DNA from: Escherichia coli | Lineage (GTDB): Bacteria; Pseudomonadota; Gammaproteobacteria; Enterobacterales; Enterobacteriaceae | Assembly: GCF_013315695.1 (NCBI RefSeq) | Contig: NZ_CP054353.1 | Strand: one strand, 5' to 3' | DNA: 64,000 bases | In this document: positions 13,219 to 63,829 of the stretch, piece by piece | Numbering within the stretch: position 1 is the stretch's first letter | How the letters are laid out: every line of letters starts with the position of its first letter | Made by a program: the position numbers and the translations under genes | The notes under the pieces: generated by a model | The model's input: the letters and a program-made list of their open reading frames with translations, nothing else | Databases searched by the model: none | Told to the model about the DNA's origin: nothing

Positions 13219-13520
13219 GAATAGTTTCCTGAGATGATTATATTACTTTTTAAGTTATAGCAAAAAGCACCGCTTCGTGTTGTGGCAAAAAAAGTGTTGG
13301 TGAAAATAAATTTTTCAGCCCCTTTTCAGACGACATAGTCAATGCCGAAAAAGGGGCTAAGTCAATCATCAGTAGTTAAATATCAGTGCGTTAATCTGAT
13401 GAAAAACTTCGACTACCGTGATTAATTTCACATCCTTTTGATTAAAAATATGCTTACCGAAAAGAAGAACAGTAAACCATCTCAGCGTGGGGAATTTTCA
13501 CGCGCTTTGTTCTTACCGGA

Positions 13521-15103: not shown

Positions 15104-15226
15104 CTTCTTACTCATTTTGTTTAATTTATAAAGTATATTTGAAATGCATTTTATGGAATTTTCTCGAGCATAGCCAGAGCCGCAGAATTTGCTACGGTTA
15201 TAGTAAGTCACCTGTGGGAAAACGCT

Positions 15227-16738: not shown

Positions 16739-16800
16739 CTTATCTCCAGTCACTCCATGCAGTTGTTAAAAAAGCCGCCTGGCTGGCGGCTTAGGAAAGT

Positions 16801-17025
16801 TTACACCTCTTTGACGCTCTCCTGCTGCAGGATTTTGAGCATCTCATCTTTTAACTGTAGCTTTTGTTTTTTCATGCGGACCACTTCCGCATTGTACCCT
16901 CGACCGTCGGAACCTTCCTTTCTGGCAATTTCATGATCAAGTTTATTGTGTTTATCGAACAAGGACATAAAGCGAGGATTTTCGTTTTTCAGACGGGATA
17001 TTAAATCTCGATATTCTGGAAACAT
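16801..17025 (-). CDS. ydcH: Small protein YdcH (74 aa)
   Basis: Start set at MFPEYRDLISRLKNENPRFM; stem-loop downstream. Confidence 0.75.
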   Translation of the reverse strand: MFPEYRDLISRLKNENPRFMSLFDKHNKLDHEIARKEGSDGRGYNAEVVRMKKQKLQLKDEMLKILQQESVKEV

Positions 17026-17164
17026 ACGCACTCCCTGTTAGTGGCTGACAAGGTGTATCTGAAATACACACCATCAGATTACTCATTTAACTTAGGGAAA
17101 AATGCGAGCGGGATCGTGTTTAACCAGACGGCACCTCCCGAAGAAGGTGCCGAAGAAAAAACGA

Positions 17165-18820: not shown

Positions 18821-19044
18821 ACCTGAAAGTGAGTCCTTCTGGTGTTGTGAATGGTCCCGCGCTGAACGTTTTCAGCGGCAAGAAAGTGCTTATTTATGAC
18901 CGCTCACTCTAGACAATATTTATTAATAATCCAATTGTTGAACTGAGAGAATATGCATAAATCGGCAATTTTTTTATGTCGATGGGATGAGCCTGATTCG
19001 TTTGTAAAATCAGGCAAATTTTTGCAAAGGCGGATGGTCAGAAT

Positions 19045-20388: not shown

Positions 20389-20604
20389 AGTGTCTGCCTC
20401 CAGTGGTCAGTAATCTGGAGTGTAGGTAACCGCATTCACTCCGGCGGGAAGAATTTACAAACTGTGATCTCGCCGCGAAAACATCAATATTATCCATTTT
20501 GCTGTAACATAATTGCTTTAATTGTTAATAATATTTTGCAATCAAGTTATCATAATCAAACAACTTCACTTGTCAGCGACACCGCTTCGTTTTTAACATC
20601 GCTT

Positions 20605-21528
20605 ATGGAAAAAAATAGTCTGTTTAGTCAGCGCATCCGTTTGCGCCACCTTCATACATTCGTAGCTGTCGCACAACAAGGAACTTTGGGGCGCGCGGCT
20701 GAAACCCTTAATTTGAGTCAACCTGCGCTCTCTAAGACATTGAATGAACTGGAGCAGCTGACGGGCGCTCGCTTGTTTGAGCGTGGTCGTCAGGGGGCGC
20801 AACTTACCTTACCCGGCGAACAATTTTTAACGCATGCAGTCAGAGTTCTTGACGCCATCAACACTGCTGGACAGTCGCTTCATCGTAAAGAAGGTCTTAA
20901 TAATGATATCGTCAGGGTTGGTGCACTACCTACTGCGGCACTGGGGATATTACCTTCGGTTATAGGTCAGTTTCATCAGCAACAAAAAGAGACGACCTTG
21001 CAAGTTGCGACAATGAGTAACCCTATGATTCTGGCGGGTTTAAAAACCGGGGAAATCGATATCGGCATTGGTCGGATGTCAGATCCTGAACTGATGACCG
21101 GGCTTAATTACGAACTGCTGTTTCTTGAATCGCTGAAGCTGGTTGTCCGCCCCAATCATCCGCTACTTCAGGAGAACGTAACGCTAAGCCGGGTGCTGGA
21201 ATGGCCGGTCGTTGTATCACCAGAAGGCACTGCGCCACGCCAGCATTCAGATGCATTAGTGCAGAGCCAGGGATGTAAAATTCCTTCGGGTTGTATCGAA
21301 ACGCTGTCTGCTTCGCTATCTCGTCAACTTACGGTTGAATACGACTACGTGTGGTTTGTCCCTTCTGGCGCTGTAAAAGACGACCTGCGTCATGCCACGC
21401 TGGTGGCCCTGCCTGTTCCGGGACATGGTGCAGGCGAACCGATTGGAATACTGACCCGCGTAGATGCGACGTTCTCTTCTGGTTGCCAGTTGATGATTAA
21501 CGCTATTCGAAAATCAATGCCGTTCTGA
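20605..21528 (+). CDS. ydcI: LysR-family transcriptional regulator (307 aa)
   Basis: HTH LRHLHTFVAVAQQGTLGRAAETLNLSQPALSKTL; start set at MEKNSLF inside longer track ORF. Confidence 0.8.
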   Translation: MEKNSLFSQRIRLRHLHTFVAVAQQGTLGRAAETLNLSQPALSKTLNELEQLTGARLFERGRQGAQLTLPGEQFLTHAVRVLDAINTAGQSLHRKEGLNNDIVRVGALPTAALGILPSVIGQFHQQQKETTLQVATMSNPMILAGLKTGEIDIGIGRMSDPELMTGLNYELLFLESLKLVVRPNHPLLQENVTLSRVLEWPVVVSPEGTAPRQHSDALVQSQGCKIPSGCIETLSASLSRQLTVEYDYVWFVPSGAVKDDLRHATLVALPVPGHGAGEPIGILTRVDATFSSGCQLMINAIRKSMPF

Positions 21529-21566
21529 AAGGTGAAGGGATCTGTCGATCCCTTCCTTGAACATTT

Positions 21567-23207
21567 TCACACCGTAGCGAAACTAACTGGTTCACCCGCT
21601 CCGCGAGGTTCTGCCGACACAGTATGTTTGTTCAGACGGAATACGTCCACCGCCTCAGTTAATCGTGCCGCCTGTTCTTCAAGGGACACCGCCGCCGCTG
21701 AGGCCTCTTCTACCAGAGAAGCATTCTGTTGCGTCACCTTATCCATTTCAGAAATCGCCTGGCTAACCTGCGTTATGCCTCTACTTTGTTCATCCGAGGC
21801 GGCGGCGATTTCCTGCATGATATGTGTGACACTCGCGACGGCATCAACAATAGTGCTCATGGTTTTCCCTGCCGTTGCCACCTCATCCGACCCCAGGTCA
21901 ATTAACCTGACTGATTCACTGATCAAGCCTTCAATCTCTTTCGCCGCCTGAGCGCTGCGGCTTGCGAGTGTCCGTACTTCGCTGGCGACAACGGCAAATC
22001 CACGTCCTTGCTCACCCGCTCGCGCGGCTTCAACGGCAGCATTCAGTGCCAGAATATTCGTCTGGAAAGCAATACTGTTGATGACGGCGGTGATCTCGGA
22101 AATTTTCTTCGAACTCGTGGAGATAGCGCCCATCGTTTTTACTACACCGGAAACCGTCTGCCCGCCATCGCTGGCTTTAATAGAAGCCTCCTGCGCCAGT
22201 TTGCTGGCATGATGCGCGTTATCTGCATTCTGTTTCACCGTCGCAGTGAGTTGCTCCATGCTGGCGGCAGTTTGTTCAATTGCCGCCGCTTGTTCTTCGG
22301 TGCGAGATGAAAGGTCCGCATTGCCAGCGGAAATTTCGCTGGTGCCACGATAAATCTCTTCCGCGCCCTGTCGAACGGTCCCTACAGTCATCCCCAGTGA
22401 ATGCTGCATTTGCTGTAAATGACGACTTAAGCGACCGATTTCATTACGACCCGCCGGTTCATCATTCATCGTCAGATCGCCACTGGCGATTTTTTCAATC
22501 CGTTGTGCGGCATGTTGCAGTGGACGAATGACGATCCGACGTAGCACTATAAATGTTATCAGCGTCATGACCAGGGCAAGCACAAACGCGCCAATCATGA
22601 ACATCCCACCCAGGCGGGTGCGCTGATGGGCCAGTTCCGCCAGTTGGTTGGCTCTGGTGCTACGTATCTTAACGGCTTTGCTCAAAATATCGGTATAAGC
22701 ATTATCCAGCGGTCGGATCTGCTCACTTTCATGATTGATAATCGCTTCAAACATGCCATTTTTGGCATATTTCAACATCGGTTGCATACCCGTGATATAA
22801 GCCTGGAAGCGTTGATTTAATTCAGTGTCGAGGGCTTCATCAGCAGGTGTTTTCACCGACCGATTCTGATAAGCACGATAACCTTGCTGCGACTGTTTAA
22901 TCTCCGATTCGGCTTGCGCAATATTTCGCTTCATTGCTTCCATTTCCGCAATACGACTCGCTGCCCCGGCCTGAATCATATTGATCCGGGCTGAACGCAA
23001 AAAATCTGAACTGTTCGCTAACCCGGTCCGAATCTCAATCTCCGCAGTAACATCACGCTGATCGCGATCGGCCTGCCAGAGGAAATAGCCAGCCAGAGCA
23101 GAACTTAATGCGAATAGAACTAAGATACCGCCAAGAATGCAGGCAAATAACGGAACCAGCCTGATGTGATGCAAAAAACCTAATCGCTGTGAGGGAGTTG
23201 TATTCAT
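21567..23207 (-). CDS. trg: Methyl-accepting chemotaxis protein III (546 aa)
   Basis: MCP signalling domain with methylation-site sequence context; recognised Trg. Confidence 0.9.
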
Positions 23208-23479
23208 TACCGTTGTCTCTCGTCCAGGTTTACTCCTGATAGAAAGTCATCGGCACTTGACGGTAATTACTTATGACCAAAAACCTCTTTGCGTCACATT
23301 TTTACAACAATTATGGCAGAGAAGAATAATGCCATTGGAATGAAGAGAGTAACGAACGGCTAAACCGAATGACGAAAAATTCTGGAAAACAGCACGCAAT
23401 TTCGTCAAGTGATTATTTTCGTCCCTAAGGAAACCTCATAGGATGCCTGCGGGTGCCTGAGACTTTCTGTTTTCAGGCT

Positions 23480-23538
23480 AACCGGGAATCAGAAAGACGA
23501 AGGCCCCGACCGATATTTCTATCAACCGAGGCCAACGA

Positions 23539-23545
<7 letters not shown>
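23480..23545 (-). ncRNA. sokB: Putative SokB antisense RNA (position approximate)
   Basis: Inferred from hok/sok organisation: antisense to the mokB leader; not resolved directly in sequence. Confidence 0.3.
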
Positions 23546-23746
<201 letters not shown>

Positions 23747-23817
23747 GGGCAAGCGCGGGGATTTTCCCCGCGCATCTGACTAGCGGATTCATTTTCTCAT
23801 GGCACCCCTTTTACACT

Positions 23818-23991
23818 TCAGTTAGTACATGTTTTTTTCGATGCACTAATAGAACCATCATTACAGACAAATTTGCCGCCTGCCGTACAGTGTGAGATTC
23901 CCCCTTTCGAACCAGAACAGGGTTTGCGCCCGGCATCGGCATAAAAGGAAACAAGCGTTCCCATAACCAAGATAAGTGCCAGTTTTTTCAT
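23818..23991 (-). CDS. ydcA: Small secreted cysteine-rich protein YdcA (57 aa)
   Basis: Hand-translated MKKLALILVMGTLVSFYADAGRKPCSGSKGGISHCTAGGKFVCNDGSISASKKTCTN. Confidence 0.7.
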   Translation of the reverse strand: MKKLALILVMGTLVSFYADAGRKPCSGSKGGISHCTAGGKFVCNDGSISASKKTCTN

Positions 23992-24161
23992 ATAACCTCC
24001 ATGGTTTATCGAATCTTATGTTCGATTTGAACGTTATACGCTGGTTTATTTTGATACCGTTGATGAGATCAAAGATCGGGTGAATTGATTAAAGATAAGC
24101 CAGATGGACGTATAGACAAGGATTATGGTTTTATTTGTCATACAAATAAATATAATAGGCG

Positions 24162-24225
24162 CTTCCGATGTAGGCCCGTATTCTTCGCCTGTACCACGGG
24201 TCGGTTTTAGTACAGGCGTTTTCTT
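24162..24225 (+). ncRNA. rydC: RydC small RNA (pseudoknot sRNA)
   Basis: CTTCCGATGTAGGCCCGTATTCTTCGCCTGTACCACGGGTCGGTTTTAGTACAGGCGTTTTCTT between ydcA and cybB, matching my recollection of RydC. Confidence 0.6.
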
Positions 24226-24235
24226 TAAATATCCT

Positions 24236-24766
24236 TCAGGAACGTTTACGCGGCATCATGCGTAGAAGTGTGTTGTCCTTCCAGAAATAGTGGTGTGCCA
24301 GTGCAGCCGCAGCGTGCAACCCGATGACAAAATATCCCAGATTCGCCAGCGTTTCATGCCACGACTTTAAGCTATCAACCCGTTCGAAATTGGCCTCTGA
24401 AGCGTAAGGCATCGTCATACCAAACGCAAACCACGGGTTGCCCCGGTTATACATCATCACCAAACCAATCACCGGCAGCGCAATAAACAGGAGATAAATC
24501 ACCAAATGGCCCAAATGCGCCAGTCCCGTCATCATCGGTTTTGGCTTAGGTATAATCGGCGGGGTTGGGTATTTCAGCCTTAACAAAAGACGAACCACCA
24601 TCAGTACGAGAATTGAGATGCCACAGGAAACATGAATCATGTTGATGAGGGGCCGATCGCTACGTGGGAAGAAACCACGAAACTCCATTGCGCAATACGC
24701 TGCGATAACCAGCAAAAAGACCAGCCAGTGAATGCTGATTTGTAACCTTGAGTATTTATTTTCCAT
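24236..24766 (-). CDS. cybB: Cytochrome b561 (176 aa)
   Basis: Start set at MENKYSRLQISIHWLVF; membrane protein. Confidence 0.9.
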   Translation of the reverse strand: MENKYSRLQISIHWLVFLLVIAAYCAMEFRGFFPRSDRPLINMIHVSCGISILVLMVVRLLLRLKYPTPPIIPKPKPMMTGLAHLGHLVIYLLFIALPVIGLVMMYNRGNPWFAFGMTMPYASEANFERVDSLKSWHETLANLGYFVIGLHAAAALAHHYFWKDNTLLRMMPRKRS

Positions 24767-24954
24767 AACATTTCCTGCTTTAAAACAATTTGCCGTTAAC
24801 ATAACGGGCTTTTCTCAAAATTTCATTAAATATTGTTCACCCGTTTTCAGTACGTTACGTTTCACGGCAAGAATGTAGATTGCCCATCCCGCCATCCTGG
24901 TCTAAGCCTGGAAAGGATCCATTTTCATCCGAACGTTCCTGACAGGAGAAGACC

Positions 24955-25956
24955 ATGAGTAAAGTTGGTATTAACGGTTTTGGTCGTATCGGTCGACTGG
25001 TGTTGCGTCGATTACTTGAAGTCAAAAGCAACATAGACATTGTCGCTATTAATGATCTCACTTCCCCAAAAATTCTCGCCTACCTGCTGAAACATGATTC
25101 AAACTACGGACCGTTCCCCTGGAGCGTTGATTTTACGGAAGATTCACTTATCGTTGATGGGAAAAGTATCGCGGTTTACGCCGAAAAAGAGGCTAAAAAT
25201 ATTCCGTGGAAAGCGAAAGGCGCAGAAATCATTGTCGAATGTACTGGCTTTTATACCTCCGCCGAGAAATCGCAGGCGCATCTCGATGCTGGCGCGAAGA
25301 AGGTGTTGATTTCCGCCCCTGCCGGTGAAATGAAAACTATCGTTTATAACGTCAATGACGACACTCTGGATGGCAACGATACCATTGTTTCCGTGGCGTC
25401 ATGCACCACTAACTGTCTTGCACCGATGGCCAAAGCCTTGCACGACAGTTTCGGAATAGAAGTCGGCACGATGACGACCATTCATGCCTATACCGGCACT
25501 CAGTCACTGGTGGATGGTCCGCGAGGTAAAGATCTACGCGCTTCACGTGCAGCGGCAGAAAATATCATTCCCCACACTACAGGTGCGGCAAAAGCCATTG
25601 GTCTGGTGATCCCGGAACTGAGCGGCAAACTGAAAGGTCATGCGCAACGCGTGCCGGTGAAAACAGGTTCGGTCACTGAGCTGGTGTCCATTCTCGGAAA
25701 AAAAGTGACTGCCGAAGAGGTGAATAACGCACTTAAACAAGCAACCACCAATAACGAGTCATTTGGTTATACCGATGAAGAAATAGTCTCTTCCGATATC
25801 ATTGGCAGCCATTTCGGTTCGGTGTTTGATGCCACGCAAACGGAAATTACCGCCGTGGGCGATTTACAACTGGTGAAAACGGTCGCCTGGTACGATAACG
25901 AATATGGCTTCGTCACACAGCTCATTCGCACCCTCGAAAAATTCGCTAAACTCTGA
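24955..25956 (+). CDS. gapC: Glyceraldehyde-3-phosphate dehydrogenase C, intact 333-aa frame
   Basis: NAD-binding [10 protein letters not shown] at N terminus; full-length uninterrupted ORF. Confidence 0.9.
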
Positions 25957-25964
25957 CGCACACA

Positions 25965-25986
25965 GGCGGAGGAAAAAACCTCCGCC
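25965..25986. terminator. Bidirectional terminator between convergent gapC and aldA
   Basis: GGCGGAGG AAAAAA CCTCCGCC. Confidence 0.6.
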
Positions 25987-25997
25987 TCTTCCACTCA

Positions 25998-27437
25998 TTA
26001 AGACTGTAAATAAACCACCTGGGTCTGCAGATATTCATGCAGGCCATGTTTACCATCTGCGCCGCCAATACCGGATTTACGCCATCCGGCGTGGAAGCCT
26101 TGCATAGCTTCGAAGTTTTCACGGTTGATGTAAGTTTCACCAAACTTCAGCCCTTTAATGGCTTTCATCGCGACGTTCAGATTTTGGGTATAGATTGATG
26201 AGGTCAGGCCGTAATCACTATCATTCGCCATTGAGATAGCCTCTTCCAGCGTATCAAATGCGACCACCGGCAGAACCGGGCCAAAGGTTTCCTCATGCAT
26301 AATCGACATTTCCTGGCGAACATCCAGCAGCAATGTCGGCGGATAATAATATCCTTTCCCCTCTACCGCTTTGCCACCCAACGCCACTCTCGCCCCTTCT
26401 TCTACTGCGCGCGCCACTTTTTGCTCAACCCTTTCCAGCGCCGCGGCGTTAATCAACGGTCCCATCGCAATGTCGTTGCGTTCAGCGGGGTTACCAAATT
26501 GAACCGCTTGCATCGCTTCACCCAACCGATTGACAAACTGATCATAAATGCCTTTCTGTACATAAACACGTTCTGCACAGTTACACACTTGCCCACTATT
26601 AATGACGCGTGAATCAACGATGGCTTTGACTGCCAGTTCAAGATCGGCATCGTCCATTACGATAGCCGGTGCTTTACCCCCCAGTTCCAGGCACACTTTG
26701 GTGATGTTTTTCGCCGCAGTCGCCATAATCTTTTCACCTGCAGAGACGCTGCCTGTCATACTGACCATTGCGACCTTTGGGTTACCCGCCAGTTCTTGCC
26801 CAACGGTTTCACCACGCCCCAGAACAAGGTTAAACACGCCGCGCGGAAGGCCTATTTCATCGACGATTTTGGCGAATGCAATCGCATTGTTTGGCGTAAA
26901 TTCACTGGGTTTAATGACGATGGTATTACCGGTCAAAAGAGCGGGAGCCATTTTGCGGGCAATGAGGAAGAACGGGAAGTTCCACGGCAGAATGCCGGTA
27001 GTCACGCCAAGCGCACGTTTAAACAGAAGAATATTTTCTCCTGGACGATCGCTTTGAATAATCTCGCCTTCATAACGCCGTGCCCACTCCGACATGTAAT
27101 CGATATAGTCCGCAGTAAAAGCCACTTCGACTTCAGCCAGCTGCTGGATCTTACCCCCTTCTTCAACAATCAGCGCACTGATTTCACTGGCGCGTTCGCG
27201 GATCCCGGCGGAGATTTTGCGCAACCAACTGGCGCGTTCAATAGCAGGCAACGCTTCCCATTCTGGTTGTGCACGTTCTGCTGCATCGATTGCCTTACGG
27301 ACATCCTCGGCCTGACCATCGGGAATGCGGGAAATGACAGCCTCTGTTGCAGGGTTTACCACATCAATCCATGCGTCTCCACGCCAGGTAACAAACTGTC
27401 CATCAATATACATAGGATGTTGAACGGGTACTGACAT
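25998..27437 (-). CDS. aldA: Lactaldehyde dehydrogenase (479 aa)
   Basis: ORF MSVPVQHPMYIDGQFVTWRGDAWIDVVNPATE...; aldehyde dehydrogenase family. Confidence 0.9.
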   Translation of the reverse strand: MSVPVQHPMYIDGQFVTWRGDAWIDVVNPATEAVISRIPDGQAEDVRKAIDAAERAQPEWEALPAIERASWLRKISAGIRERASEISALIVEEGGKIQQLAEVEVAFTADYIDYMSEWARRYEGEIIQSDRPGENILLFKRALGVTTGILPWNFPFFLIARKMAPALLTGNTIVIKPSEFTPNNAIAFAKIVDEIGLPRGVFNLVLGRGETVGQELAGNPKVAMVSMTGSVSAGEKIMATAAKNITKVCLELGGKAPAIVMDDADLELAVKAIVDSRVINSGQVCNCAERVYVQKGIYDQFVNRLGEAMQAVQFGNPAERNDIAMGPLINAAALERVEQKVARAVEEGARVALGGKAVEGKGYYYPPTLLLDVRQEMSIMHEETFGPVLPVVAFDTLEEAISMANDSDYGLTSSIYTQNLNVAMKAIKGLKFGETYINRENFEAMQGFHAGWRKSGIGGADGKHGLHEYLQTQVVYLQS

Positions 27438-38597: not shown

Positions 38598-38652
38598 GGT
38601 GATGCTGCCAACTTACTGATTTAGTGTATGATGGTGTTTTTGAGGTGCTCCA

Positions 38653-38928
38653 GTGGCTTCTGTTTCTATCAGCTGTCCCTCCTGTTCAGCTACTGACGGG
38701 GTGGTGCGTAACGGCAAAAGCACCGCCGGACATCAGCGCTATCTCTGCTCTCACTGCCGTAAAACATGGCAACTGCAGTTCACTTACACCGCTTCTCAAC
38801 CCGGTACGCACCAGAAAATCATTGATATGGCCATGAATGGCGTTGGATGCCGGGCAACAGCCCGCATTATGGGCGTTGGCCTCAACACGATTTTACGTCA
38901 CTTAAAAAACTCAGGCCGCAGTCGGTAA
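38653..38928 (+). CDS. insA: IS1 InsA
   Basis: Translation identical to copy 1 InsA. Confidence 0.9.
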
Positions 38929-39350
38929 CCTCGCGCATACAGCCGGGCAGTGACGTCATCGTCTGCGCGGAAATGGACGAACAGTGGGGCTATGTCGGGG
39001 CTAAATCGCGCCAGCGCTGGCTGTTTTACGCGTATGACAGGCTCCGGAAGACGGTTGTTGCGCACGTATTCGGTGAACGCACTATGGCGACGCTGGGGCG
39101 TCTTATGAGCCTGCTGTCACCCTTTGACGTGGTGATATGGATGACGGATGGCTGGCCGCTGTATGAATCCCGCCTGAAGGGAAAGCTGCACGTAATCAGC
39201 AAGCGATATACGCAGCGAATTGAGCGGCATAACCTGAATCTGAGGCAGCACCTGGCACGGCTGGGACGGAAGTCGCTGTCGTTCTCAAAATCGGTGGAGC
39301 TGCATGACAAAGTCATCGGGCATTATCTGAACATAAAACACTATCAATAA
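38847..39350 (+). CDS. insB: IS1 InsB reading frame
   Basis: Translation identical to copy 1 InsB. Confidence 0.9.
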
Positions 39351-39505
39351 GTTGGAGTCATTACCACTTGAACCGATAATAAACGCAGAAATTCTATTTT
39401 GTAGCTCATTGTTGCCTCCTGTGTGAATTGTTCGAATCTACCAGGCTGCGATGAAAGAAGTCGTGTAGTAGAGAGCTATACCCGCAACAAGCGGGGCAGA
39501 CGTTC

Positions 39506-48448: not shown

Positions 48449-48476
48449 ATGCTCTGGATAAGGATCATCCAATTCT

Positions 48477-48571
48477 AAAAAAAAGCCCGGACGACGGTTC
48501 GGGCTTGTCTCATTATTTGTTGGATAAACAGTAACAAGGGTCCAACAGAAAATAATCTTTGTGACAATAAA
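48477..48571 (-). ncRNA. micC: MicC small RNA (OmpC-repressing), with its intrinsic terminator
   Basis: Minus-strand GTTATATGCCTTTATTGTCACA... 5' seed, ending in hairpin GCCCGAACCGTCGTCCGGGC plus T-run; between ydbK and ompN as in K-12. Confidence 0.6.
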
Positions 48572-48838
48572 GGCATATAACCCGCGAAGAATAACGCATC
48601 ACTATTTAAATGTATAATTTTTATTTTGTATATGTCGCCAACAATATATTCACCAGACTTATTATCATTTCAGAAGAATTATTTGATTAAGGTTTTACTT
48701 AAGGCGTAACAAATAATATTTATCGTCTAACTGAACTTCTCCTTTAGGATGCTTTCACTCCCCGAAATGGGGATAAAAGGCAAGGTGATGCTGCCAACTT
48801 ACTGATTTAGTGTATGATGGTGTTTTTGAGGTGCTCCA

Positions 48839-49114
48839 GTGGCTTCTGTTTCTATCAGCTGTCCCTCCTGTTCAGCTACTGACGGGGTGGTGCGTAACGG
48901 CAAAAGCACCGCCGGACATCAGCGCTATCTCTGCTCTCACTGCCGTAAAACATGGCAACTGCAGTTCACTTACACCGCTTCTCAACCCGGTACGCACCAG
49001 AAAATCATTGATATGGCCATGAATGGCGTTGGATGCCGGGCAACAGCCCGCATTATGGGCGTTGGCCTCAACACGATTTTACGTCACTTAAAAAACTCAG
49101 GCCGCAGTCGGTAA
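48839..49114 (+). CDS. insA: IS1 InsA
   Basis: Translation identical to copy 1 InsA. Confidence 0.9.
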
Positions 49115-49536
49115 CCTCGCGCATACAGCCGGGCAGTGACGTCATCGTCTGCGCGGAAATGGACGAACAGTGGGGCTATGTCGGGGCTAAATCGCGCCAG
49201 CGCTGGCTGTTTTACGCGTATGACAGGCTCCGGAAGACGGTTGTTGCGCACGTATTCGGTGAACGCACTATGGCGACGCTGGGGCGTCTTATGAGCCTGC
49301 TGTCACCCTTTGACGTGGTGATATGGATGACGGATGGCTGGCCGCTGTATGAATCCCGCCTGAAGGGAAAGCTGCACGTAATCAGCAAGCGATATACGCA
49401 GCGAATTGAGCGGCATAACCTGAATCTGAGGCAGCACCTGGCACGGCTGGGACGGAAGTCGCTGTCGTTCTCAAAATCGGTGGAGCTGCATGACAAAGTC
49501 ATCGGGCATTATCTGAACATAAAACACTATCAATAA
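49033..49536 (+). CDS. insB: IS1 InsB reading frame
   Basis: Translation identical to copy 1 InsB. Confidence 0.9.
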
Positions 49537-49551
49537 GTTGGAGTCATTACC

Positions 49552-50357
49552 TCGATTACGGACGTAATTATGGCGTAATGTACGACATCGAAGGCTGGAC
49601 CGATATGCTGCCTGAATTTGGCGGTGACTCTTATACCAATGCAGACAACTTTATGACTGGTCGTGCCAACGGCGTCGCGACTTATCGTAATACTGATTTC
49701 TTCGGTCTGGTAAATGGTCTGAACTTCGCAGTGCAGTATCAAGGTAACAACGAAGGTGCCAGTAATGGTCAGGAAGGCACCAACAACGGACGTGATGTTC
49801 GCCATGAAAACGGTGACGGCTGGGGTCTTTCCACAACATATGATTTAGGCATGGGCTTTAGCGCTGGTGCGGCATACACCTCATCTGACCGCACCAATGA
49901 CCAGGTTAACCATACTGCGGCAGGTGGTGATAAAGCAGACGCGTGGACTGCTGGGCTAAAATACGATGCTAACAATATTTACCTGGCAACCATGTATTCA
50001 GAAACACGTAACATGACCCCGTTTGGCGACAGCGATTATGCAGTTGCGAACAAAACCCAGAACTTTGAAGTTACTGCACAGTACCAGTTTGATTTTGGTC
50101 TGCGTCCGGCAGTCTCTTTCCTGATGTCTAAAGGCCGTGACCTTCACGCTGCCGGTGGTGCAGACAACCCGGCAGGTGTTGATGATAAAGATCTGGTTAA
50201 ATACGCCGATGTTGGCGCGACTTACTATTTCAACAAAAATATGTCCACCTACGTTGACTATAAAATCAACCTGTTGGATGAAGATGACAGCTTCTACGCT
50301 GCCAACGGCATCTCTACCGATGATATTGTCGCTTTAGGTCTGGTTTATCAGTTCTAA
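49552..50357 (+). pseudogene. ompN: 3' portion of outer membrane porin gene truncated by IS1; ompN by synteny
   Basis: Frame open from the IS1 junction (..[15 protein letters not shown]..) to a porin-type C terminus LGLVYQF; N-terminal ~110 codons and promoter missing. Confidence 0.75.
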
Positions 50358-50365
50358 ATCCTCCT

Positions 50366-50389
50366 GCCCGCTGTTATGGCGGGCTTTTT
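50366..50389 (+). terminator. Rho-independent terminator after ompN remnant
   Basis: GCCCGC TGTTATG GCGGGC TTTTT. Confidence 0.65.
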
Positions 50390-50416
50390 CTGCTTATTCT
50401 TCCTCCTTTGATCTAA

Positions 50417-50932
<516 letters not shown>

Positions 50933-50939
50933 CACTAAC

Positions 50940-50964
50940 GCCCGCACATTGCTGCGGGCTTTTT
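50940..50964 (+). terminator. Rho-independent terminator after uspF
   Basis: GCCCGCA CATTGC TGCGGGC TTTTT. Confidence 0.65.
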
Positions 50965-51421
50965 GATTCATTTCGCAAATGTGCTGACATTTTCCCCTCT
51001 AATCCGTACCATACACGCCACAGTTTTTATATCAGATTTCTTATGCTGGGCGTTCCGGCATGACGCATACTCTTCTGATGCCATATAACGAATTGAGTCG
51101 CTTTTAAATGTCGCAAAATCAAGAAATTAGTAAGAAAGAACAATACAACCTGAACAAGTAAGGGCAAAAATCACAACTCTCTGACTCATAAGTATTTTAC
51201 TTATTTTTCAATGTGTTAAATATCATCAGCGACAACAATAAGCTACGATAACCCACTCTTTTTTTGCCCCTTTTTTGCCCCTTTTGCAGCGCTTTGCCCC
51301 ATTTTTGCCATCAACAATTTTCCTCATCAAGTCATTTCAAAGCCTAATAGGTGCCCTACTTTTTTCCTCAGTACCACGTCGCCAGCAGGAAACAACCTAA
51401 TCCCGGTTCGGATCTAAAATT

Positions 51422-51440
51422 GCTAATGATAATCATTTTC
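51422..51440 (+). promoter_or_regulatory. Fur box upstream of sitA
   Basis: GCTAATGATAATCATTTTC versus consensus GATAATGATAATCATTATC. Confidence 0.75.
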
Positions 51441-51462
51441 ATTTTGTATTGCTTATGCTATA

Positions 51463-51484
51463 AAACATAGCCGTTGCTATGTTT
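51463..51484 (+). promoter_or_regulatory. MntR operator upstream of sitA
   Basis: Perfect palindrome AAACATAGC CGTT GCTATGTTT, matching the MntR box form. Confidence 0.7.
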
Positions 51485-51516
51485 GTTCTAATTTTGCTCA
51501 CTATAGGTACTAAATT

Positions 51517-52431
51517 ATGTACTCAATAAAAAAAGTAACCATGCTCTTGGGGTGCCTCGCCCTCACCTGCTCGATCGCATTTCAGGCGAGTGCAACTGAA
51601 AAATTCAAGGTCATTACAACATTTACCATCATCGCAGATATGGCCAAAAACGTGGCTGGAGATGCTGCAGAAGTCTCATCCATAACCAAGCCCGGTGCAG
51701 AAATTCATGAGTATCAGCCTACCCCTGGCGATATTAAACGTGCGCAGGAGGCACAACTGATTCTCGCCAATGGTATGAATCTGGAATTGTGGTTCCAACG
51801 CTTTTACCAGCATCTTAATGGGGTTCCAGAAGTAATTGTCTCTTCGGGTGTGACGCCAGTAGGGATCACTGAAGGCCCCTATGAGGGCAAACCTAACCCC
51901 CATGCCTGGATGTCGCCAGATAATGCTCTGATTTACGTCGATAATATTCGTGATGCGTTGATAAAATACGATCCGGCAAATGCACAAACCTACCAACGTA
52001 ATGCCGATACTTATAAAGCCAAGATTACCCAAACCCTTGCCCCCCTGCGTAAGCAGATTGCTGAACTCCCTGAGAATCAGCGATGGATGGTCACCAGTGA
52101 AGGGGCTTTTTCTTATCTCGCACGCGATTTGGGGCTAAAAGAGCTTTATCTGTGGCCGATTAATGCCGATCAACAAGGCACGCCGCAGCAGGTACGTAAG
52201 GTTGTTGATATGGTGAAGAAAAATCATATCCCGGCAGTCTTTAGCGAGAGTACGATTTCCGATAAACCAGCGCGTCAGGTTGCGCGTGAAACCGGCGCGC
52301 ACTACGGCGGTGTACTCTATGTCGATTCCCTGAGCACAGAAAACGGCCCGGTACCTACGTATATCGACCTTCTGAAGGTTACTACCAGTACGCTGGTACA
52401 GGGAATTAAAGCCGGGAAAAGGGAGAAATAA
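51517..52431 (+). CDS. sitA: Periplasmic Mn/Fe-binding protein of Sit ABC transporter (304 aa)
   Basis: Signal peptide plus metal-binding lipoprotein-9-like sequence; first gene of a four-gene transporter operon. Confidence 0.85.
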
Positions 52432-53258
52432 TGATGCAATCTGCGGGCATTGTCGTTAATGATGTTACTGTCACCTGGCGTAACGGGCACACAGCACTGC
52501 GCGATGCATCCTTCACAGTACCAAGTGGATCTATTGCCGCTCTGGTTGGGGTAAACGGTTCCGGAAAATCGACGTTGTTTAAAGCGATTATGGGATTTGT
52601 GCGTCTGACCAGCGGAAAGATATCTGTTCTGGGTATTCCCACGCGACAGGCGCTACAGAAAAACCTGGTTGCCTACGTCCCTCAGTCAGAAGAGGTTGAC
52701 TGGTCATTTCCTGTACTAGTGGAAGATGTGGTGATGATGGGCCGCTATGGGCACATGGGTATGTTGCGTATAGCCAAAAAGAGGGATCGTCAGATTGTCA
52801 CCGATGCGCTGGAACGTGTCGATATGGTGGATTTTCGCCATCGACAAATCGGCGAGCTTTCCGGTGGACAAAAGAAACGCGTCTTTCTGGCGAGAGCGAT
52901 TGCACAGCAGGGTGATGTGATCCTGCTGGATGAACCTTTTACCGGCGTTGATGTGAAAACCGAAGCGAAAATCATCAGCCTGTTGAGGGAGTTACGCGCG
53001 GAAGGCAAGACGATGCTTGTCTCAACGCACAATCTCGGCTCAGTCACGACATTTTGCGATTATACGGTCATGGTCAAAGGCACCGTCCTGGCAAGCGGGC
53101 CGACAGACACCACTTTTACAGCCGAGAACCTGGAGCTGGCTTTTAGCGGCGTACTGCGCCATGTCACACTTAACGCCTCGGAAGAAAGCATTATTACTGA
53201 CGATGAACACCCTTTTGTGGCACATCGACCGTCAGCGGTGCAGAGGGAAGCAAGATGA
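52431..53258 (+). CDS. sitB: Sit transporter ATP-binding protein (275 aa)
   Basis: Walker [10 protein letters not shown], signature LSGGQKKR, Walker B ILLDEP. Confidence 0.85.
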
Positions 53259-54112
53259 ACGTGCTACTGGAACCCTTCAGCTATGAATATATGCTCAATG
53301 CGATGTGGGTCTCGGCGATGGTCGGCGGTCTCTGCGCTTTCCTGTCATGCTATCTGATGCTAAAAGGCTGGTCGCTGATTGGCGATGCGCTGTCGCACTC
53401 TATTGTCCCGGGTGTTGCGGGGGCATATATGCTGGGGCTTCCGTTTTCTCTGGGAGCCTTCTTTTCCGGCGGACTGGCAGCGGGCAGCATGCTGTTTCTT
53501 AACCAACGCACTCGCTTAAAAGAAGATGCCATCATCGGCCTGATCTTCTCCTCCTTTTTTGGCCTGGGGCTGTTTATGGTGTCATTGAACCCGACATCCG
53601 TGAACATTCAGACCATCGTCCTAGGCAATATTCTGGCAATCGATCCGGCGGATATCCTGCAACTCACTATCATTGGCATTCTCTCGATCATCGTGCTTTT
53701 TTTCAAATGGAAAGATCTTATGGTGACCTTTTTCGACGAGAATCACGCCCGTGCTATTGGATTGCATCCGGGCAGATTAAAAATCCTCTTCTTCACCCTG
53801 CTGTCGGTTTCGACCGTTGCGGCGCTGCAAACGGTTGGTGCCTTTCTGGTGATCTGTCTGGTGGTGACTCCCGGTGCAACAGCATGGTTGTTAACCGATC
53901 GTTTTCCCCGCCTGCTCATAATTGCTGTAACTATTGGCAGTGTAACCAGTTTCCTCGGCGCGTGGGTCAGTTACTTTCTGGACGGCGCGACAGGTGGAAT
54001 CATCGTGGTGGCGCAGACACTGCTGTTTCTTTTAGCATTTGTATTTGCGCCCACCCATGGGCTTTTGGCAAATCGTCGGCGTGCGCATAAAGCGCTGGAG
54101 GATCGCTCATGA
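53255..54112 (+). CDS. sitC: Sit transporter permease (285 aa)
   Basis: Multi-pass membrane ORF overlapping sitB end. Confidence 0.85.
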
Positions 54113-54966
54113 TGGCATTATTACTGGAGCCACTGCAGTTCACCTTTATGAGTCACGCACTGCTGATTTCACTGGTAGTTTCCATACCCTGTGCGCTGCT
54201 GTCGGTCTTTCTGGTCCTGAAAGGTTGGGCACTGATGGGTGACGCGATGAGTCATGCGGTTTTTCCTGGCATCGTGCTTGCCTGGATTCTGGGGTTACCT
54301 CTGGCTACAGGGGCATTTATCGCCGGAGTATTCTGCGCGGTGGCGACGGGATACCTGAAAGACAACAGCCGAATCAAGCAAGATACAGTGATGGGGATTG
54401 TTTTTTCTGGCATGTTTGCCGCAGGTCTGATCTTGTATATTGCAGTCAAACCAGACATACATCTTGACCATATTCTTTTCGGCGACATGCTCGGGGTAAC
54501 CATCGGCGATATAATCCAGACGATGATTATTGCCGGGCTGGTTACACTTGTTATTAGCGTAAAATGGCGGGATTTTTTGCTGTTCAGCTTTGATTATCAA
54601 CAGGCGCAGGTAAGCGGTTTGCATACGCGATGGCTGCATTATGGGCTGCTGTGCATGGTTTCCCTGACCATTGTGGCGACGCTGAAAGCAGTAGGTATCA
54701 TTCTCTCCATTTCTCTGCTCATTGCGCCTGGCGCCATTGCGGTACTCCTGACACAACGCTTTCATATTGCACTCCTACTGGCGACTGGCATATCGGTAAT
54801 AGTCTCAATGACTGGTGTTTGGCTGTCCTTTTTTATCGACAGCGCACCCGCTCCGACGATTGTCGTCTTATTCGCGGTTGTGTTCATCATGACGTTTACC
54901 GTTATCAGTTTCAACGCACGCACAAAGGGAAACGCTCATAGACAGGATCTGTTATCCCCCAATTAG
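54109..54966 (+). CDS. sitD: Sit transporter permease (285 aa)
   Basis: Multi-pass membrane ORF overlapping sitC end. Confidence 0.85.
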   Translation: MMALLLEPLQFTFMSHALLISLVVSIPCALLSVFLVLKGWALMGDAMSHAVFPGIVLAWILGLPLATGAFIAGVFCAVATGYLKDNSRIKQDTVMGIVFSGMFAAGLILYIAVKPDIHLDHILFGDMLGVTIGDIIQTMIIAGLVTLVISVKWRDFLLFSFDYQQAQVSGLHTRWLHYGLLCMVSLTIVATLKAVGIILSISLLIAPGAIAVLLTQRFHIALLLATGISVIVSMTGVWLSFFIDSAPAPTIVVLFAVVFIMTFTVISFNARTKGNAHRQDLLSPN

Positions 54967-55417
54967 CACAACATCCGAGGGCAGCATTGTCCGCTAGTAC
55001 ACTGCAGTCCAGAAAGTCATGGGCGGACGTTGGGAGGAGGCGCTAATCCTTTCATACAAAAAATATGTAAAATCAATAACGGCTGTAAATCATTCAATAC
55101 TCGCACTATCGGAAGTTCACCAGCCAGCCGCAGCACGTTCTTGCATACGACGTGTCTGCGGTTTCAACTTCACCAGTCCACCAATCACGATGGACAGTGC
55201 CAAGACAGCACTAGCAAAAACAGGAAATTAGCAGTCTCAGCAGAACACCGACCAGACGGTGAAGAAACAAAAAAGGATACGCAAAGGGGCCGCAGTTCCC
55301 GATTGATAAAAAAGCCAGCTTATGCGCTTTTTTTTCATGTATTATTAAGTATTGGTTAGCGTCTTTTTAATCAGAACTTTAAAGACAAGCCATTTGTAAG
55401 AAAACCGACAGATTCGG

Positions 55418-56233
55418 TTGACAAGCAGGAGTAATACTTTGGACATAAGAAAAGATTTGGAATCAGTAGCCCAATATATAAGTAGACTGTTATCGATAGG
55501 GTACGAATTTAGCCGTTTTGATAAAGACTGGGTCCATTTAAAAAATGAAGAGGATTTTCGTTTTATTTCAAGAATACCATTTGCAACACGGAATAAAGTG
55601 GAAGCAGTATATGCGGAAGGCAGAGATATGGCACTTTATATGTCTGATGAGTTACTATCCATTAATAGTGATTTCAGTAAATTTCCAACGTTGACAGCTA
55701 TTATCGAAAGATTCAAGGACACTTGGGTTTATGGTAATTATGATTCGGAAGTGCCAAATATAGCTAAAAAAACATGCGAAGAAAATGCAGTTCAGCTTTG
55801 GTCTGTAGAACAGATGTGTTCCTTATTCAAAAAGCAAGAACAACTATTAGCAGCAGTACGTATCACATTGCAGATGCTACAAGATAGTGACCTATACAAG
55901 ATGGAGAATGGTTTACCTCTTATGAAACAAGAAGCTAATATTCATGTCAGTGGAATTTCCGGTTCTAGTATCAATATACATTCTTCAGGTGCTACGGCAA
56001 CTACTACGACAAATTATAATGAGCCCACAATATTTAATGAAATGATTGAGGCAATAAAATCGAAAAACTTTGATGGCGCGACAGAATCACACCTTATAGA
56101 TAATGTACAGGCACTGGCAGCCAGTCACCAAAGCGGCTGTTTTAAAGAAGCATATAAGGACTTTATTAATAATGTATCTGCACACATTACAGTATTTACT
56201 CCATTTCTTGCTGGCATATCATCTTTACTATAA
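55418..56233 (+). CDS. Hypothetical protein, AT-rich orphan ORF (271 codons from TTG; a TTG at 55439 has better Shine-Dalgarno spacing)
   Basis: Long open frame in a visibly low-GC segment; AGGAG at 55427..55431; no family recognised; Ser/Thr-rich linker SGISGSSINIHSSGATATTTTN. Confidence 0.55.
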   Translation: MTSRSNTLDIRKDLESVAQYISRLLSIGYEFSRFDKDWVHLKNEEDFRFISRIPFATRNKVEAVYAEGRDMALYMSDELLSINSDFSKFPTLTAIIERFKDTWVYGNYDSEVPNIAKKTCEENAVQLWSVEQMCSLFKKQEQLLAAVRITLQMLQDSDLYKMENGLPLMKQEANIHVSGISGSSINIHSSGATATTTTNYNEPTIFNEMIEAIKSKNFDGATESHLIDNVQALAASHQSGCFKEAYKDFINNVSAHITVFTPFLAGISSLL

Positions 56234-56778
56234 AATAAGTGACAGATACATTAATACATAACGAAAAATCTTTTTAGCTACTCATTCATATCAATAGTGC
56301 CCTACCATAGGGCACATTATTCGTGGAACTCGTTTATGACAAAAGAATTTTGATGGTCTGCCTGATGCAACAGATATAATTCTGGGAGTGTTGAGTAAGA
56401 GTATTCACCGGCGCTCAACACAAATGCCAGCAAGCACGAGAAAGAGCAGGTAAGCCTGAGTGTTCAGGAAATGTTTGAAAAGGCTAATATGTGGCTGGTT
56501 TCAGATTAAACGCCTTGAACCGTCATATTACTTAAGTACAATCCGCCTAGACTAGCAATCATTCAATAGTAGCACTATCGAGCGCTCGCCAGTCGAGCGC
56601 AATCATGCTCCTTGCATACGGCGTGCAGCATATCACAAAACGATTACGCCATGACGGACTGCAGGCTACTCAATATCTGGCTCGATTAGCGTATTGGCAT
56701 GATTTAACAGACCCCGGCGCTTATTCCCAGCAACCTGAAGCGGCACCTCTTCCTGTGTTGCGTTTACAACTCCCTTTT

Positions 56779-57087
56779 TCACCCACGATTAACCAACAGC
56801 CAGACCAGCAGACAAGCCACCACCGGCACAGAAAAATCCATCAGGCTTGCCACATCCCACACGCGCGGATCAAAACCACCCCACCACGGCATATTCATAC
56901 GCTTGCCATGCCCGAACATTTCAATCCAGCGATATTCTGCCTGGGTATGTTCACGAGCAATGAAGAACGTACAACCGGCTATCGCCCCGTAAGCCCAGTT
57001 TCCGGTAAAAAGACCAACCAGTACCTGCGCAGCCACAGCACAAAGTGCATGAAGGAAAGGTGTTATATCCATTTTCATCCTACCCAA
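56779..57087 (-). CDS. Hypothetical small membrane protein (102 aa; may start at MKMDITPF, 57075)
   Basis: Two hydrophobic segments (AVAAQVLVGLF..., VPVVACLLVWLLV); overlapping plus-strand 161-aa ORF is low-complexity. Confidence 0.5.
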   Translation of the reverse strand: MGRMKMDITPFLHALCAVAAQVLVGLFTGNWAYGAIAGCTFFIAREHTQAEYRWIEMFGHGKRMNMPWWGGFDPRVWDVASLMDFSVPVVACLLVWLLVNRG

Positions 57088-57148
57088 TAAAACGAGGCGC
57101 TCGGCCCCTTAATATTATTTAGACGCAAGCGTCGGTAATGACTCCAAC

Positions 57149-57652
57149 TTATTGATAGTGTTTTATGTTCAGATAATGCCCGATGACTTTGTCATGCAGC
57201 TCCACCGATTTTGAGAACGACAGCGACTTCCGTCCCAGCCGTGCCAGGTGCTGCCTCAGATTCAGGTTATGCCGCTCAATTCGCTGCGTATATCGCTTGC
57301 TGATTACGTGCAGCTTTCCCTTCAGGCGGGATTCATACAGCGGCCAGCCATCCGTCATCCATATCACCACGTCAAAGGGTGACAGCAGGCTCATAAGACG
57401 CCCCAGCGTCGCCATAGTGCGTTCACCGAATACGTGCGCAACAACCGTCTTCCGGAGCCTGTCATACGCGTAAAACAGCCAGCGCTGGCGCGATTTAGCC
57501 CCGACATAGCCCCACTGTTCGTCCATTTCCGCGCAGACGATGACGTCACTGCCCGGCTGTATGCGCGAGGTTACCGACTGCGGCCTGAGTTTTTTAAGTG
57601 ACGTAAAATCGTGTTGAGGCCAACGCCCATAATGCGGGCTGTTGCCCGGCAT
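57149..57652 (-). CDS. insB: IS1 InsB reading frame
   Basis: Translation identical to copy 1 InsB. Confidence 0.9.
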
Positions 57653-57846
57653 CCAACGCCATTCATGGCCATATCAATGATTTTCTGGTGCGTACCGGGT
57701 TGAGAAGCGGTGTAAGTGAACTGCAGTTGCCATGTTTTACGGCAGTGAGAGCAGAGATAGCGCTGATGTCCGGCGGTGCTTTTGCCGTTACGCACCACCC
57801 CGTCAGTAGCTGAACAGGAGGGACAGCTGATAGAAACAGAAGCCAC
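57571..57846 (-). CDS. insA: IS1 InsA
   Basis: Translation identical to copy 1 InsA. Confidence 0.9.
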
Positions 57847-57925
57847 TGGAGCACCTCAAAAACACCATCATACACTAAATCAGTAAGTTGGCAGCATCAC
57901 CCCCGGCGTTAAGGGGAGAGATAAG

Positions 57926-63453: not shown

Positions 63454-63648
63454 ATGAGATATGACAATGTTAAACCATGTCCATTTTGTGGTTGTCCATC
63501 AGTAACGGTGAAAGTCATTTCAGGATATTACCGAGCGAAGTGTAACGGATGCGAATCCCGAACCGGTTATGGTGGAAGTGAAAAAGAAGCACTCGAAAGA
63601 TGGAATAAACGAACCACTGGAAATAATAACGGAGGTGTTCATGTATAA
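63454..63648 (+). CDS. ralR: Restriction alleviation protein RalR/Lar (64 aa)
   Basis: Start set at MRYDNVKPCPFCGCPSVTVKV; Cys-rich motif. Confidence 0.7.
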   Translation: MRYDNVKPCPFCGCPSVTVKVISGYYRAKCNGCESRTGYGGSEKEALERWNKRTTGNNNGGVHV

Positions 63649-63829
63649 AATTACCGCCACTATTGAAAAGGAAGGTGGCACTCCTACTAACTGGACAAGA
63701 TATTCAAAATCTAAACTAACGAAATCAGAATGCGAAAAAATGCTCTCAGGTAAAAAAGAAGCAGGCGTTTCCAGAGAGCAGAAAGTAAAACTGATAAATT
63801 TTAATTGCGAGAAACTTCAGTCCTCGTGA
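63641..63829 (+). CDS. ydaC: Rac prophage protein YdaC (62 aa)
   Basis: Start set at MYKITATIEKEGGTPTNW, overlapping ralR stop. Confidence 0.6.
   Translation: MYKITATIEKEGGTPTNWTRYSKSKLTKSECEKMLSGKKEAGVSREQKVKLINFNCEKLQSS

Follow-up and report, generated by a model that had tools for sequence, protein, structure and literature searches.

A known sitABCD manganese/iron importer operon with predicted Fur and MntR operators as cargo of an IS1-reduced Rac-type prophage in Escherichia coli

Next to uspF, where Escherichia coli K-12 carries part of the Rac prophage, the 64-kb stretch of E. coli DNA analysed here (64,000 nucleotides, hereafter the window) harbours a four-gene metal-transporter operon, and the question thereby raised is what these genes import, how they are likely to be controlled, and by what route they came to occupy this position. 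The coordinates of the relevant features are collected in Table 1.

Four open reading frames were found exactly where such an operon had been predicted, arranged in the order binding protein, ATPase, permease, permease, and forming a single coupled operon (51517-54966) in which the ORF coordinates overlap by 1, 4 and 4 nt at the sitA/sitB, sitB/sitC and sitC/sitD junctions respectively. Their proposed Mn/Fe identity was borne out by 100% identity between the operon and RefSeq-annotated sitABCD DNA, and by the match of SitB to the equivalog model 'manganese/iron ABC transporter ATP-binding protein'; the SitB translation displays in addition a Walker motif, the LSGGQ signature and the Walker B sequence ILLDE. 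Pfam assigned SitA to the ZnuA fold, SitB to ABC_tran, and both SitC and SitD, which are 38% identical to one another, to ABC-3, while SitA also matched phrog_8216. No NCBIfam model scored above its cutoff with SitA, SitC or SitD, the names of which were taken from near-identity to annotated genes and from structural relatives. Judged by its sequence, the operon is an ordinary and already known SitABCD/YfeABCD-type Mn/Fe ABC importer, and its initial description as virulence-associated rather than novel agrees with four published accounts (PMC3852070, PMC7545054, PMC8970401, PMC9928086).

Table 1. Features of the uspF-sit-IS1 region, in window coordinates
Feature	Coordinates	Strand	Description and basis
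uspF, chromosomal flank gene	50498..50932	+	NF011581 UspF equivalog, 302.6 bits (cutoff 166), matching ORF residues 25-168; identical DNA so annotated in RefSeq
uspF terminator-like hairpin	50940..50959	+	seven pairs, six of them G-C, then TTTTTG
attR of Rac-type prophage (ttcC, duplicate of ttcA 5' end)	51108..51158	+	K-12 alignment to ttcC
Retained Rac right arm	51159..51310	+	98.5% K-12 alignment, ending exactly at 51310
sit regulatory region	51311..51516	+	found with the operon in all contexts examined
Fur box	51422..51440	+	GCTAATGATAATCATTTTC, 17/19 to consensus
Putative sigma-70 promoter	51436..51464	+	-35 TTTTCA 51436-51441, 17-nt spacer, -10 TATAAA 51459-51464; read by eye
Putative MntR operator palindrome	51463..51484	+	AAACATAGC-N4-GCTATGTTT, exact match
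sitA	51517..52431	+	304 aa, periplasmic Mn/Fe-binding protein; PF01297, 291 bits
sitB	52431..53258	+	275 aa, ABC ATPase; NF011630 equivalog, 589.8 bits (cutoff 393)
sitC	53255..54112	+	285 aa, permease; PF00950 ABC-3, 279 bits
sitD	54109..54966	+	285 aa, permease, SitC paralogue; PF00950, 254 bits
Candidate weak operon terminator	55128..55161	+	14-pair hairpin then TTTC; RNA fold
Orphan ORF	55439..56233		264 aa
IS1 truncating the prophage	57134..57901	-	100% match to IS1 copies; no target-site duplication

Among solved structures the closest relative of SitA is YfeA (418.9 bits over residues 24-297), others being MntC (353 bits), the Salmonella entry 5jg7 (288.7 bits), which is the solved N-terminal domain of a 'Fur regulated Salmonella iron transporter', and E. 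coli ZnuA (51.2 bits). H64, H129, E195 and D270 of SitA lie, in the YfeA alignment, within motifs conserved with YfeA, which we take to be the metal ligands of the YfeA and PsaA structures. The original prediction had named better alignment to ZnuABC as grounds for abandoning the Mn/Fe designation; the scores pointed the opposite way (YfeA 419 bits, ZnuA 51 bits). A zinc-specific importer of the ZnuABC type is nevertheless suggested by the Pfam family of SitA, PF01297, which carries the name ZnuA, and by weak NCBIfam matches to AztABC and ZnuA/ZnuB, every one of them below cutoff, with the ZnuA and ZnuB models reaching 69-78 bits against cutoffs of 268-284. The two systems do have in common the ABC importer superfamily and the fold family of the binding protein, but identities with the E. 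coli proteins amount to just 22% for ZnuA and SitA (66 bits, pairwise), 31% for ZnuC and SitB and 27% for ZnuB and SitC, and none of the ZnuABC hallmarks (His-rich loop, three-His site, single permease) was found: SitA has a His-His-Glu-Asp set, with Glu195 as third ligand where ZnuA has His, it lacks the His-rich loop of ZnuA, and two permease genes are present here rather than one. On scores, ligand set, loop and permease count the zinc reading was ruled out at the sequence level, its probability being next to nil. As a Mn/Fe importer, this copy would be expected to carry Mn2+ and Fe2+, as the systems of APEC, Shigella and Salmonella are known to do (PMC3852070).

The regulatory region upstream of sitA is common to phage 21 and the strain 536 prophage from 51331 onwards, and to IncF plasmids from about 51315. 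The near-consensus Fur box predicted at 51422..51440 was recovered there with two mismatches relative to the 19-bp consensus GATAATGATAATCATTATC, and proved to be the sole site in the 64-kb window with three or fewer mismatches, as against 0.01 expected from shuffled sequences; prophage, phage and plasmid copies keep its core but differ in the spacer alongside. The putative -10 hexamer TATAAA is invariant in a six-sequence alignment, and the Fur box would overlap only the presumed -35. A consensus promoter scan listed no sigma-70 promoter at the Fur and MntR boxes, and the proposed -35/-10 spacing in the IncF variant would be 15 nt, for which reasons the hexamer assignment is uncertain. Neither fur nor mntR is present in the window.

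The second predicted element, a 'perfect' MntR palindrome, was confirmed as an exact match in its 9-bp arms (AAACATAGC-CGTT-GCTATGTTT), but perfection does not extend to the 4-bp spacer CGTT, which is asymmetric. Nothing else in the window matched when up to three mismatches were allowed (0.03 expected). With the K-12 mntH promoter sequence itself serving as the reference for the MntR box, the half-sites proved identical to those upstream of K-12 mntH. A survey of the exact palindrome, for which 80 loci were fetched from species-representative genomes, returned 34 enterobacterial loci, and in all 34 it stood just upstream of either mntH (30) or a sitA homologue (4). The order Fur box, MntR box, sitA is retained in sit homologues in which SitA is only ~74% identical, and likewise in the prophage, phage 21 and plasmid copies, in which the spacer between the two boxes diverges.

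A palindrome of this kind might alternatively work at the RNA level, as an attenuator or terminator hairpin, and not as an operator bound by a protein, and the terminator scan did list it, as a 9-pair stem with a 4-nt loop followed by a T-rich tail. However, only three of the nine stem pairs are G-C, and the IncF variant AAACATAGT breaks one pair without any compensating change. Across many genera the mntH and sit promoters keep the half-site sequence itself unchanged but differ in the spacer, a pattern that fits sequence-specific protein recognition. Published work, moreover, assigns MntR repression to both mntH and sit, describes sitABCD and mntH alike as repressed by Fur and MntR, and reports Mn-dependent MntR binding or repression for Salmonella and Shigella sit (PMC3852070, PMC8970401). 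A hairpin function is on this evidence highly improbable, and an MntR operator is the preferred assignment.

As regards location, homology to K-12 extends from uspF across attR and on into the Rac right arm for 152 bp, ending at 51310. Positions 51115-51157 match the start of ttcA (attL) in MSB1_4I, a near-identical genome, at 40 of 43 positions, and TTTTTGCCCC-type direct repeats at 51262-51310 (repeat family D1) are possibly integrase arm-type sites. The K-12 Rac segment from racR to ynaM (11482-26806 of locus L002) stands where the window has 51311-57901, in keeping with the proposal that the operon sits where K-12 has one end of Rac; homology to K-12 Rac resumes at 57902, with the genes from ydaG towards int. 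Since attR and 152 bp of Rac arm lie outside it, the sit module is to be read, from the order of these segments, as cargo inside a Rac-type prophage, some 152-153 bp inward of attR.

The operon had been placed on an island between uspF and the Rac remnant, but its separateness from the prophage does not hold, given the intervening attR and Rac arm. An independent genomic island inserted outside the prophage would accord with the 'PAI sit' of reviews, for which several chromosomal locations are reported (PMC7545054), and with the occurrence of the module outside phages on IncF plasmids, where it is IS1-flanked. Against this, in SPF_0923, an undeleted prophage at the uspF locus, sitD is immediately followed by genes for tail-fibre assembly and tail, the genes downstream of sit in the window belong to phage family phrog_1443 or are DinI-like, and the place of the module in phage 21, adjoining the side tail fibre genes, is equivalent. 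The module was found to have neither an integrase nor direct repeats nor a target duplication of its own, and the 46-55% G+C of the sit genes is not anomalous and thus lends no compositional support to an island. An origin independent of the prophage is accordingly rated quite unlikely, and prophage cargo remains the favoured reading.

Module boundaries are marked by a repeat element (55031-55161) that contains the candidate terminator hairpin: homology to the SPF_0923 prophage record stops at 55161, and sequence resembling the element lies upstream of sit in strain 536 and again at 56557-56601. Rfam detected no RNA family in 50900-57200, its matches in the window (MicC, RalA, Sok and RydC) all lying elsewhere. 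On the far side of the module, IS1 has removed the middle of the Rac-type prophage, the order of the IS1 events being a reconstruction. A composite transposon was considered and rejected: target-site duplications are lacking at all four IS1 copies, and native chromosome forms the outer flanks, which indicates insertions and deletions in situ rather than a transposed unit. No complete E. coli genome in RefSeq contains the exact IS1/ompN junction.

Across 5426 complete E. coli genomes the sit module was present in 2336, and at least 80% of the uspF-attR-sit stretch in 526; the arrangement is thus still a common one. The contexts of the module comprise phage 21, icd-site prophages, including that of strain 536, and IncF plasmids. 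DNA identity of the module is 97.3% with phage 21 and 97.1% with the strain 536 prophage copy; among the IncF plasmid matches listed, most are at ~96.8% and the best at 98.3%. As expected of a moron, it lies inside the att boundary, takes an equivalent tail-fibre-end position in phage 21, strain 536 and SPF_0923, and is accompanied in every context by its own promoter region, the Fur/MntR region. In LF82, sitABCD has been described as a moron operon of prophage Perceval (PMC9928086).

The IS1-bounded remnant (48784-57901) also retains the orphan ORF, which gave no Pfam, PHROG or NCBIfam match and no PDB fold match. Its homologues are scattered across Gammaproteobacteria, and the two contexts examined for its relatives were phage-associated or primase-carrying (Toprim/DUF927) elements. 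That the remnant keeps, besides sit, a second, uncharacterised cargo gene acting as a putative new single-gene phage-exclusion or defence factor is a tentative suggestion, and a rather doubtful one.

Taken together, a single account very probably holds: a SitABCD cluster A-I Mn/Fe importer under predicted dual Fur/MntR control, carried as a phage moron and stranded by IS1. In the periplasm, SitA would capture Mn2+ or Fe2+ with His64, His129, Glu195 and Asp270 and hand the ion to a heterodimeric SitC/SitD permease, with transport powered by the SitB ATPase. All four translationally coupled genes lie behind one regulatory region, in which the Fur box overlaps the presumed -35 and the MntR palindrome the presumed -10 and start site; from these positions, Fe2+-Fur and Mn2+-MntR would each be predicted to block transcription, and the operon would be switched on where both metals run short, host tissue being one such setting. 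Operon and regulatory region together are lysogenic-conversion cargo of lambdoid phages; IS1 has deleted the carrier's genes for replication, lysis and structure, and the cargo is left fixed in the chromosome.

SitABCD is a fitness and virulence factor of E. coli, Shigella and Salmonella, contributing Mn and Fe acquisition and oxidative stress resistance in the host, and the Salmonella SPI-1 system is the founding member of the family. The present copy changes nothing in that established picture, its value being that of a precise map: operon and Fur/MntR region move as one ~3.65-kb unit among lambdoid phages, prophages at different att sites and IncF plasmids, and in this lineage the deletion of the Rac-type carrier by IS1 has left the unit stranded in the chromosome. 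The Salmonella operon, to which the 5jg7 match of SitA attests a likeness, is similarly under Fur and MntR repression (PMC8970401, PMC3852070) but is encoded on SPI-1 rather than a prophage, as indicated by a title cited in PMC3852070. YfeABCD of Yersinia pestis, which supplies the closest solved structure to SitA, with conserved ligand motifs, is like Sit a Mn/Fe importer (PMC3852070), but differs in that a separate MntR operator is predicted here. The K-12 mntH promoter likewise places a Fur-like box and then AAACATAGC-N4-GCTATGTTT immediately before the gene, but with AAAG in place of CGTT as spacer, and mntH is a core gene for an NRAMP proton symporter. Closest of all are the E. coli and Shigella sitABCD copies described as 'PAI sit', as the Perceval moron and as phage 21 b-region cargo, which have the same genes, Fur/MntR boxes and tail-fibre neighbourhood, whereas the carrier here is of Rac type, located at ttcA/uspF and not at icd, and mostly deleted by IS1.

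The operon named in the original prediction was recovered as four ORFs on one strand (table below), with junctions TAATG, ATGA and ATGA, so that the sit genes are translationally coupled, and with good Shine-Dalgarno sequences for sitB, sitC and sitD and a weak one for sitA. Many complete E. coli chromosomes matched the DNA of 50900-55500 at 100% identity, and in these the genes bear the RefSeq names sitA, sitB, sitC and sitD; the G+C content of the genes (46-55%) was ordinary. The observation is confirmed and its interpretation supported, including the statement that the system is known rather than novel, the biology of sitABCD having been described already.

Coordinates of the sit operon, its neighbours and other features of the window
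Feature	Coordinates	Strand	Remarks
IS1 (four in 64 kb)	25-792, 38598-39366, 48784-49551, 57134-57901		last copy inverted
Sok antitoxin RNA (hokB locus)	23451-23602		Rfam, above gathering score
RydC sRNA	24162-24225		Rfam, above gathering score
MicC	48469-48584		intact
ompN	49552-50357		first ~118 codons absent
attR (ttcC)	51108-51158		duplicate of ttcA 5' end
TTTTTGCCCC-type direct repeats	51262-51310		three to four
Fur box	51422-51440		GCTAATGATAATCATTTTC
Candidate -35	51436-51441		TTTTCA
Candidate -10	51459-51464		TATAAA
Putative MntR palindrome	51463-51484		AAACATAGC CGTT GCTATGTTT
sitA	51517-52431	+	ORF, 304 aa
sitB	52431-53258	+	ORF, 275 aa
sitC	53255-54112	+	ORF, 285 aa
sitD	54109-54966	+	ORF, 285 aa
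~110-bp hairpin sequence	55031-55161, 56557-56625		ends in 14-pair hairpin
45-nt direct repeat	55088-55132, 56557-56601		flanks orphan ORF
Orphan ORF	55439-56233	+	264 aa, TTG start after AGGAG
phrog_1443 gene	56779-57087	-	small membrane-like protein, 196.7 bits
RalA antitoxin RNA	63647-63825		Rfam, above gathering score

Pfam searches assigned SitA to the ZnuA-fold binding proteins (291 bits), SitB to ABC_tran, and SitC (279 bits) and SitD (254 bits) to the ABC-3 permeases, the last two being paralogues with 38% identity. SitB exceeded the cutoff of the 'manganese/iron ABC transporter ATP-binding protein' equivalog of NCBIfam (589.8 bits; cutoff 393). Among solved structures, SitA scored highest against YfeA of Yersinia pestis (418.9 bits), followed by MntC of Synechocystis (353 bits); a 'Fur regulated Salmonella iron transporter' fragment gave 288.7 bits, and for E. 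coli ZnuA the score was only 51.2 bits. The SitA motifs EIH64EY, NPH129AW, TSE195GA and YVD270SL were conserved with YfeA, and we take H64, H129, E195 and D270 to be the His-His-Glu-Asp ligands of Mn/Fe-type proteins, as in the YfeA and PsaA structures. Direct comparison with K-12 ZnuA, ZnuC and ZnuB gave identities of 22%, 31% and 27%, SitA had no counterpart of the ZnuA His-rich loop, and the position of Glu195 is His in ZnuA; a ZnuABC-type zinc importer, a better fit to which would have refuted the original prediction, was rejected on these grounds. The structural scores, SitB equivalog, ligand motifs and low Znu identities therefore leave the predicted Mn/Fe class standing.

Both regulatory elements expected upstream of sitA were present. 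The near-consensus Fur box agreed with the 19-bp consensus at 17 positions and was the sole site in the window (0.01 matches expected at three mismatches or fewer), as was the putative MntR palindrome (0.03 expected). With the K-12 mntH upstream sequence itself as the reference, the 9-bp half-sites of the palindrome proved identical to those of mntH, directly 5' of which lie a Fur-like box and then the palindrome (TTGATAATCATTCTC...AAACATAGCAAAGGCTATGTTT). When a collection of species-representative genomes was scanned for exact copies of the palindrome, 87 stretches were reported, 80 of which were taken as loci; in all 34 enterobacterial loci among these 80 the palindrome closely preceded either mntH (30) or a sitA homologue (4), and the remaining 46 were from unrelated taxa. 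Alignment of six E. coli-type copies (the window, the strain 536 prophage, phage 21, two IncF plasmids and a species-representative genome) indicated conservation of the Fur core, TATAAA and palindrome around a variable between-box spacer, the IncF variant having a single half-site change (AAACATAGT). In the sit homologues of Enterobacter, Cedecea and Dryocola (SitA ~74% identical), the half-sites were unchanged, the spacer was different, and a Fur-like box (AAATGATAATTATTTGC) lay directly upstream. In these three promoters (loci L023, L025 and L045) the MntR box is followed at once by another palindrome (TATAGCAATTGCTATA), a shorter one that the E. coli-type promoter lacks and that may be a second MntR site.

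Repression of both sitABCD and mntH by Fur and by MntR is described in reviews and in a Salmonella study (PMC3852070, PMC8970401). Candidate promoter hexamers can be proposed at the sit boxes, where a consensus promoter scan gave no report of TTTTCA/TATAAA; with these hexamers, Fur would occupy the -35 and MntR the -10/+1 region. Judging from homologues, SitA would most likely capture Mn2+ or Fe2+ in the periplasm, SitC and SitD with SitB would import the delivered metal, and Fe-Fur and Mn-MntR would independently shut off transcription.

The predicted location, an island between uspF and the Rac remnant, calls for one refinement. Alignment with K-12 gave two homology blocks around sit: the first, comprising ompN, uspF, ttcC and 152 bp more of the Rac right arm, ended at 51310, and the second restarted at 57902, right after the inverted IS1, from ydaG onward towards int. 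The attR segment matched the ttcA start (attL) of a near-identical genome at 40/43 positions. The sit module (operon plus regulatory region), at 153 bp from attR, is therefore within a Rac-type prophage, and the operon is prophage cargo rather than a free-standing island beside Rac, with attR and 152 bp of Rac arm between uspF and the module. Direct repeats ~105-150 bp inside attR, common to K-12 Rac, may be integrase arm-type binding sites; the module starts just past this cluster, exactly where K-12 homology stops.

None of the four IS1 copies in the window had a target-site duplication, which, with their number in 64 kb, suggests that the region was shaped by deletions that IS1 caused next to itself or by recombination between copies, one apparent loss being that of the Rac-type prophage between ydaG and the tail-fibre end. 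The window was colinear throughout with E. coli MSB1_4I, the sole difference being a 362-bp deletion, adjoining the IS1 copy at 48784-49551, that removes the ompN 5' end; the exact IS1/ompN junction, which MicC adjoins, was found in no complete RefSeq E. coli genome. The Sok, RydC and RalA matches were to be expected, all being features of the core genome or of Rac.

Between sitD and a DinI-like pseudogene, on the IS1 side of sitD, an AT-rich stretch (36-37% G+C) carries an orphan ORF with no match in Pfam, PHROG or NCBIfam; its 85 homologues are spread patchily over the Gammaproteobacteria. Two relatives examined for context occupied phage-associated or primase-carrying (Toprim/DUF927) element settings, and 8/25 family members weakly matched the PADLOC candidate PDC-M14B (best E 1e-4). 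A confident AF2 model (pLDDT 84.5), helical with a disordered linker at 163-193, had no PDB fold match. The gene may be uncharacterised phage-exclusion or defence cargo. The DinI-like pseudogene and the phrog_1443 gene are further cargo of this stretch. The ~110-bp hairpin sequence, found 3' of sitD and again 1.47 kb further on, also precedes the sit module of the strain 536 prophage (L005 19896-20009), and seems to be a boundary where cargo modules have recombined repeatedly at the tail-fibre end of phages.

Of 5426 complete E. coli genomes, 2336 had 80% or more of the operon (51400-54966), with 1682 matching places on chromosomes and 1061 on plasmids, and 526 had 80% or more of the stretch from uspF through attR to sit (50900-55500). 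In PLSDB, 1025 plasmid records contained 80% or more of the module (51311-54986), and IS1 flanks it on IncF plasmids. Phage records with at least 80% of the module numbered 27, and SitA matches phrog_8216. The undeleted arrangement is represented by the record 'Salmonella phage SPF_0923', a 98.2% match to window positions 49552-55161, with tail-fibre assembly, tail-fibre and tail genes directly after sitD; because it includes a ydbK fragment, ompN and uspF, it is probably a prophage extracted together with adjoining host DNA. 'PAI sit' has been reported at several chromosomal sites (PMC7545054), and sitABCD of the LF82 prophage Perceval has been described as a moron operon (PMC9928086). Phage 21 and the strain 536 prophage also have the phrog_1443 gene, placed between sitD and the side tail fibre genes. 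In strain 536 the module (window 51331-54986, 97.1%) is at the end of a lambdoid prophage at icd, and in classical phage 21 it has the side tail fibre genes on one side and attP/int on the other.
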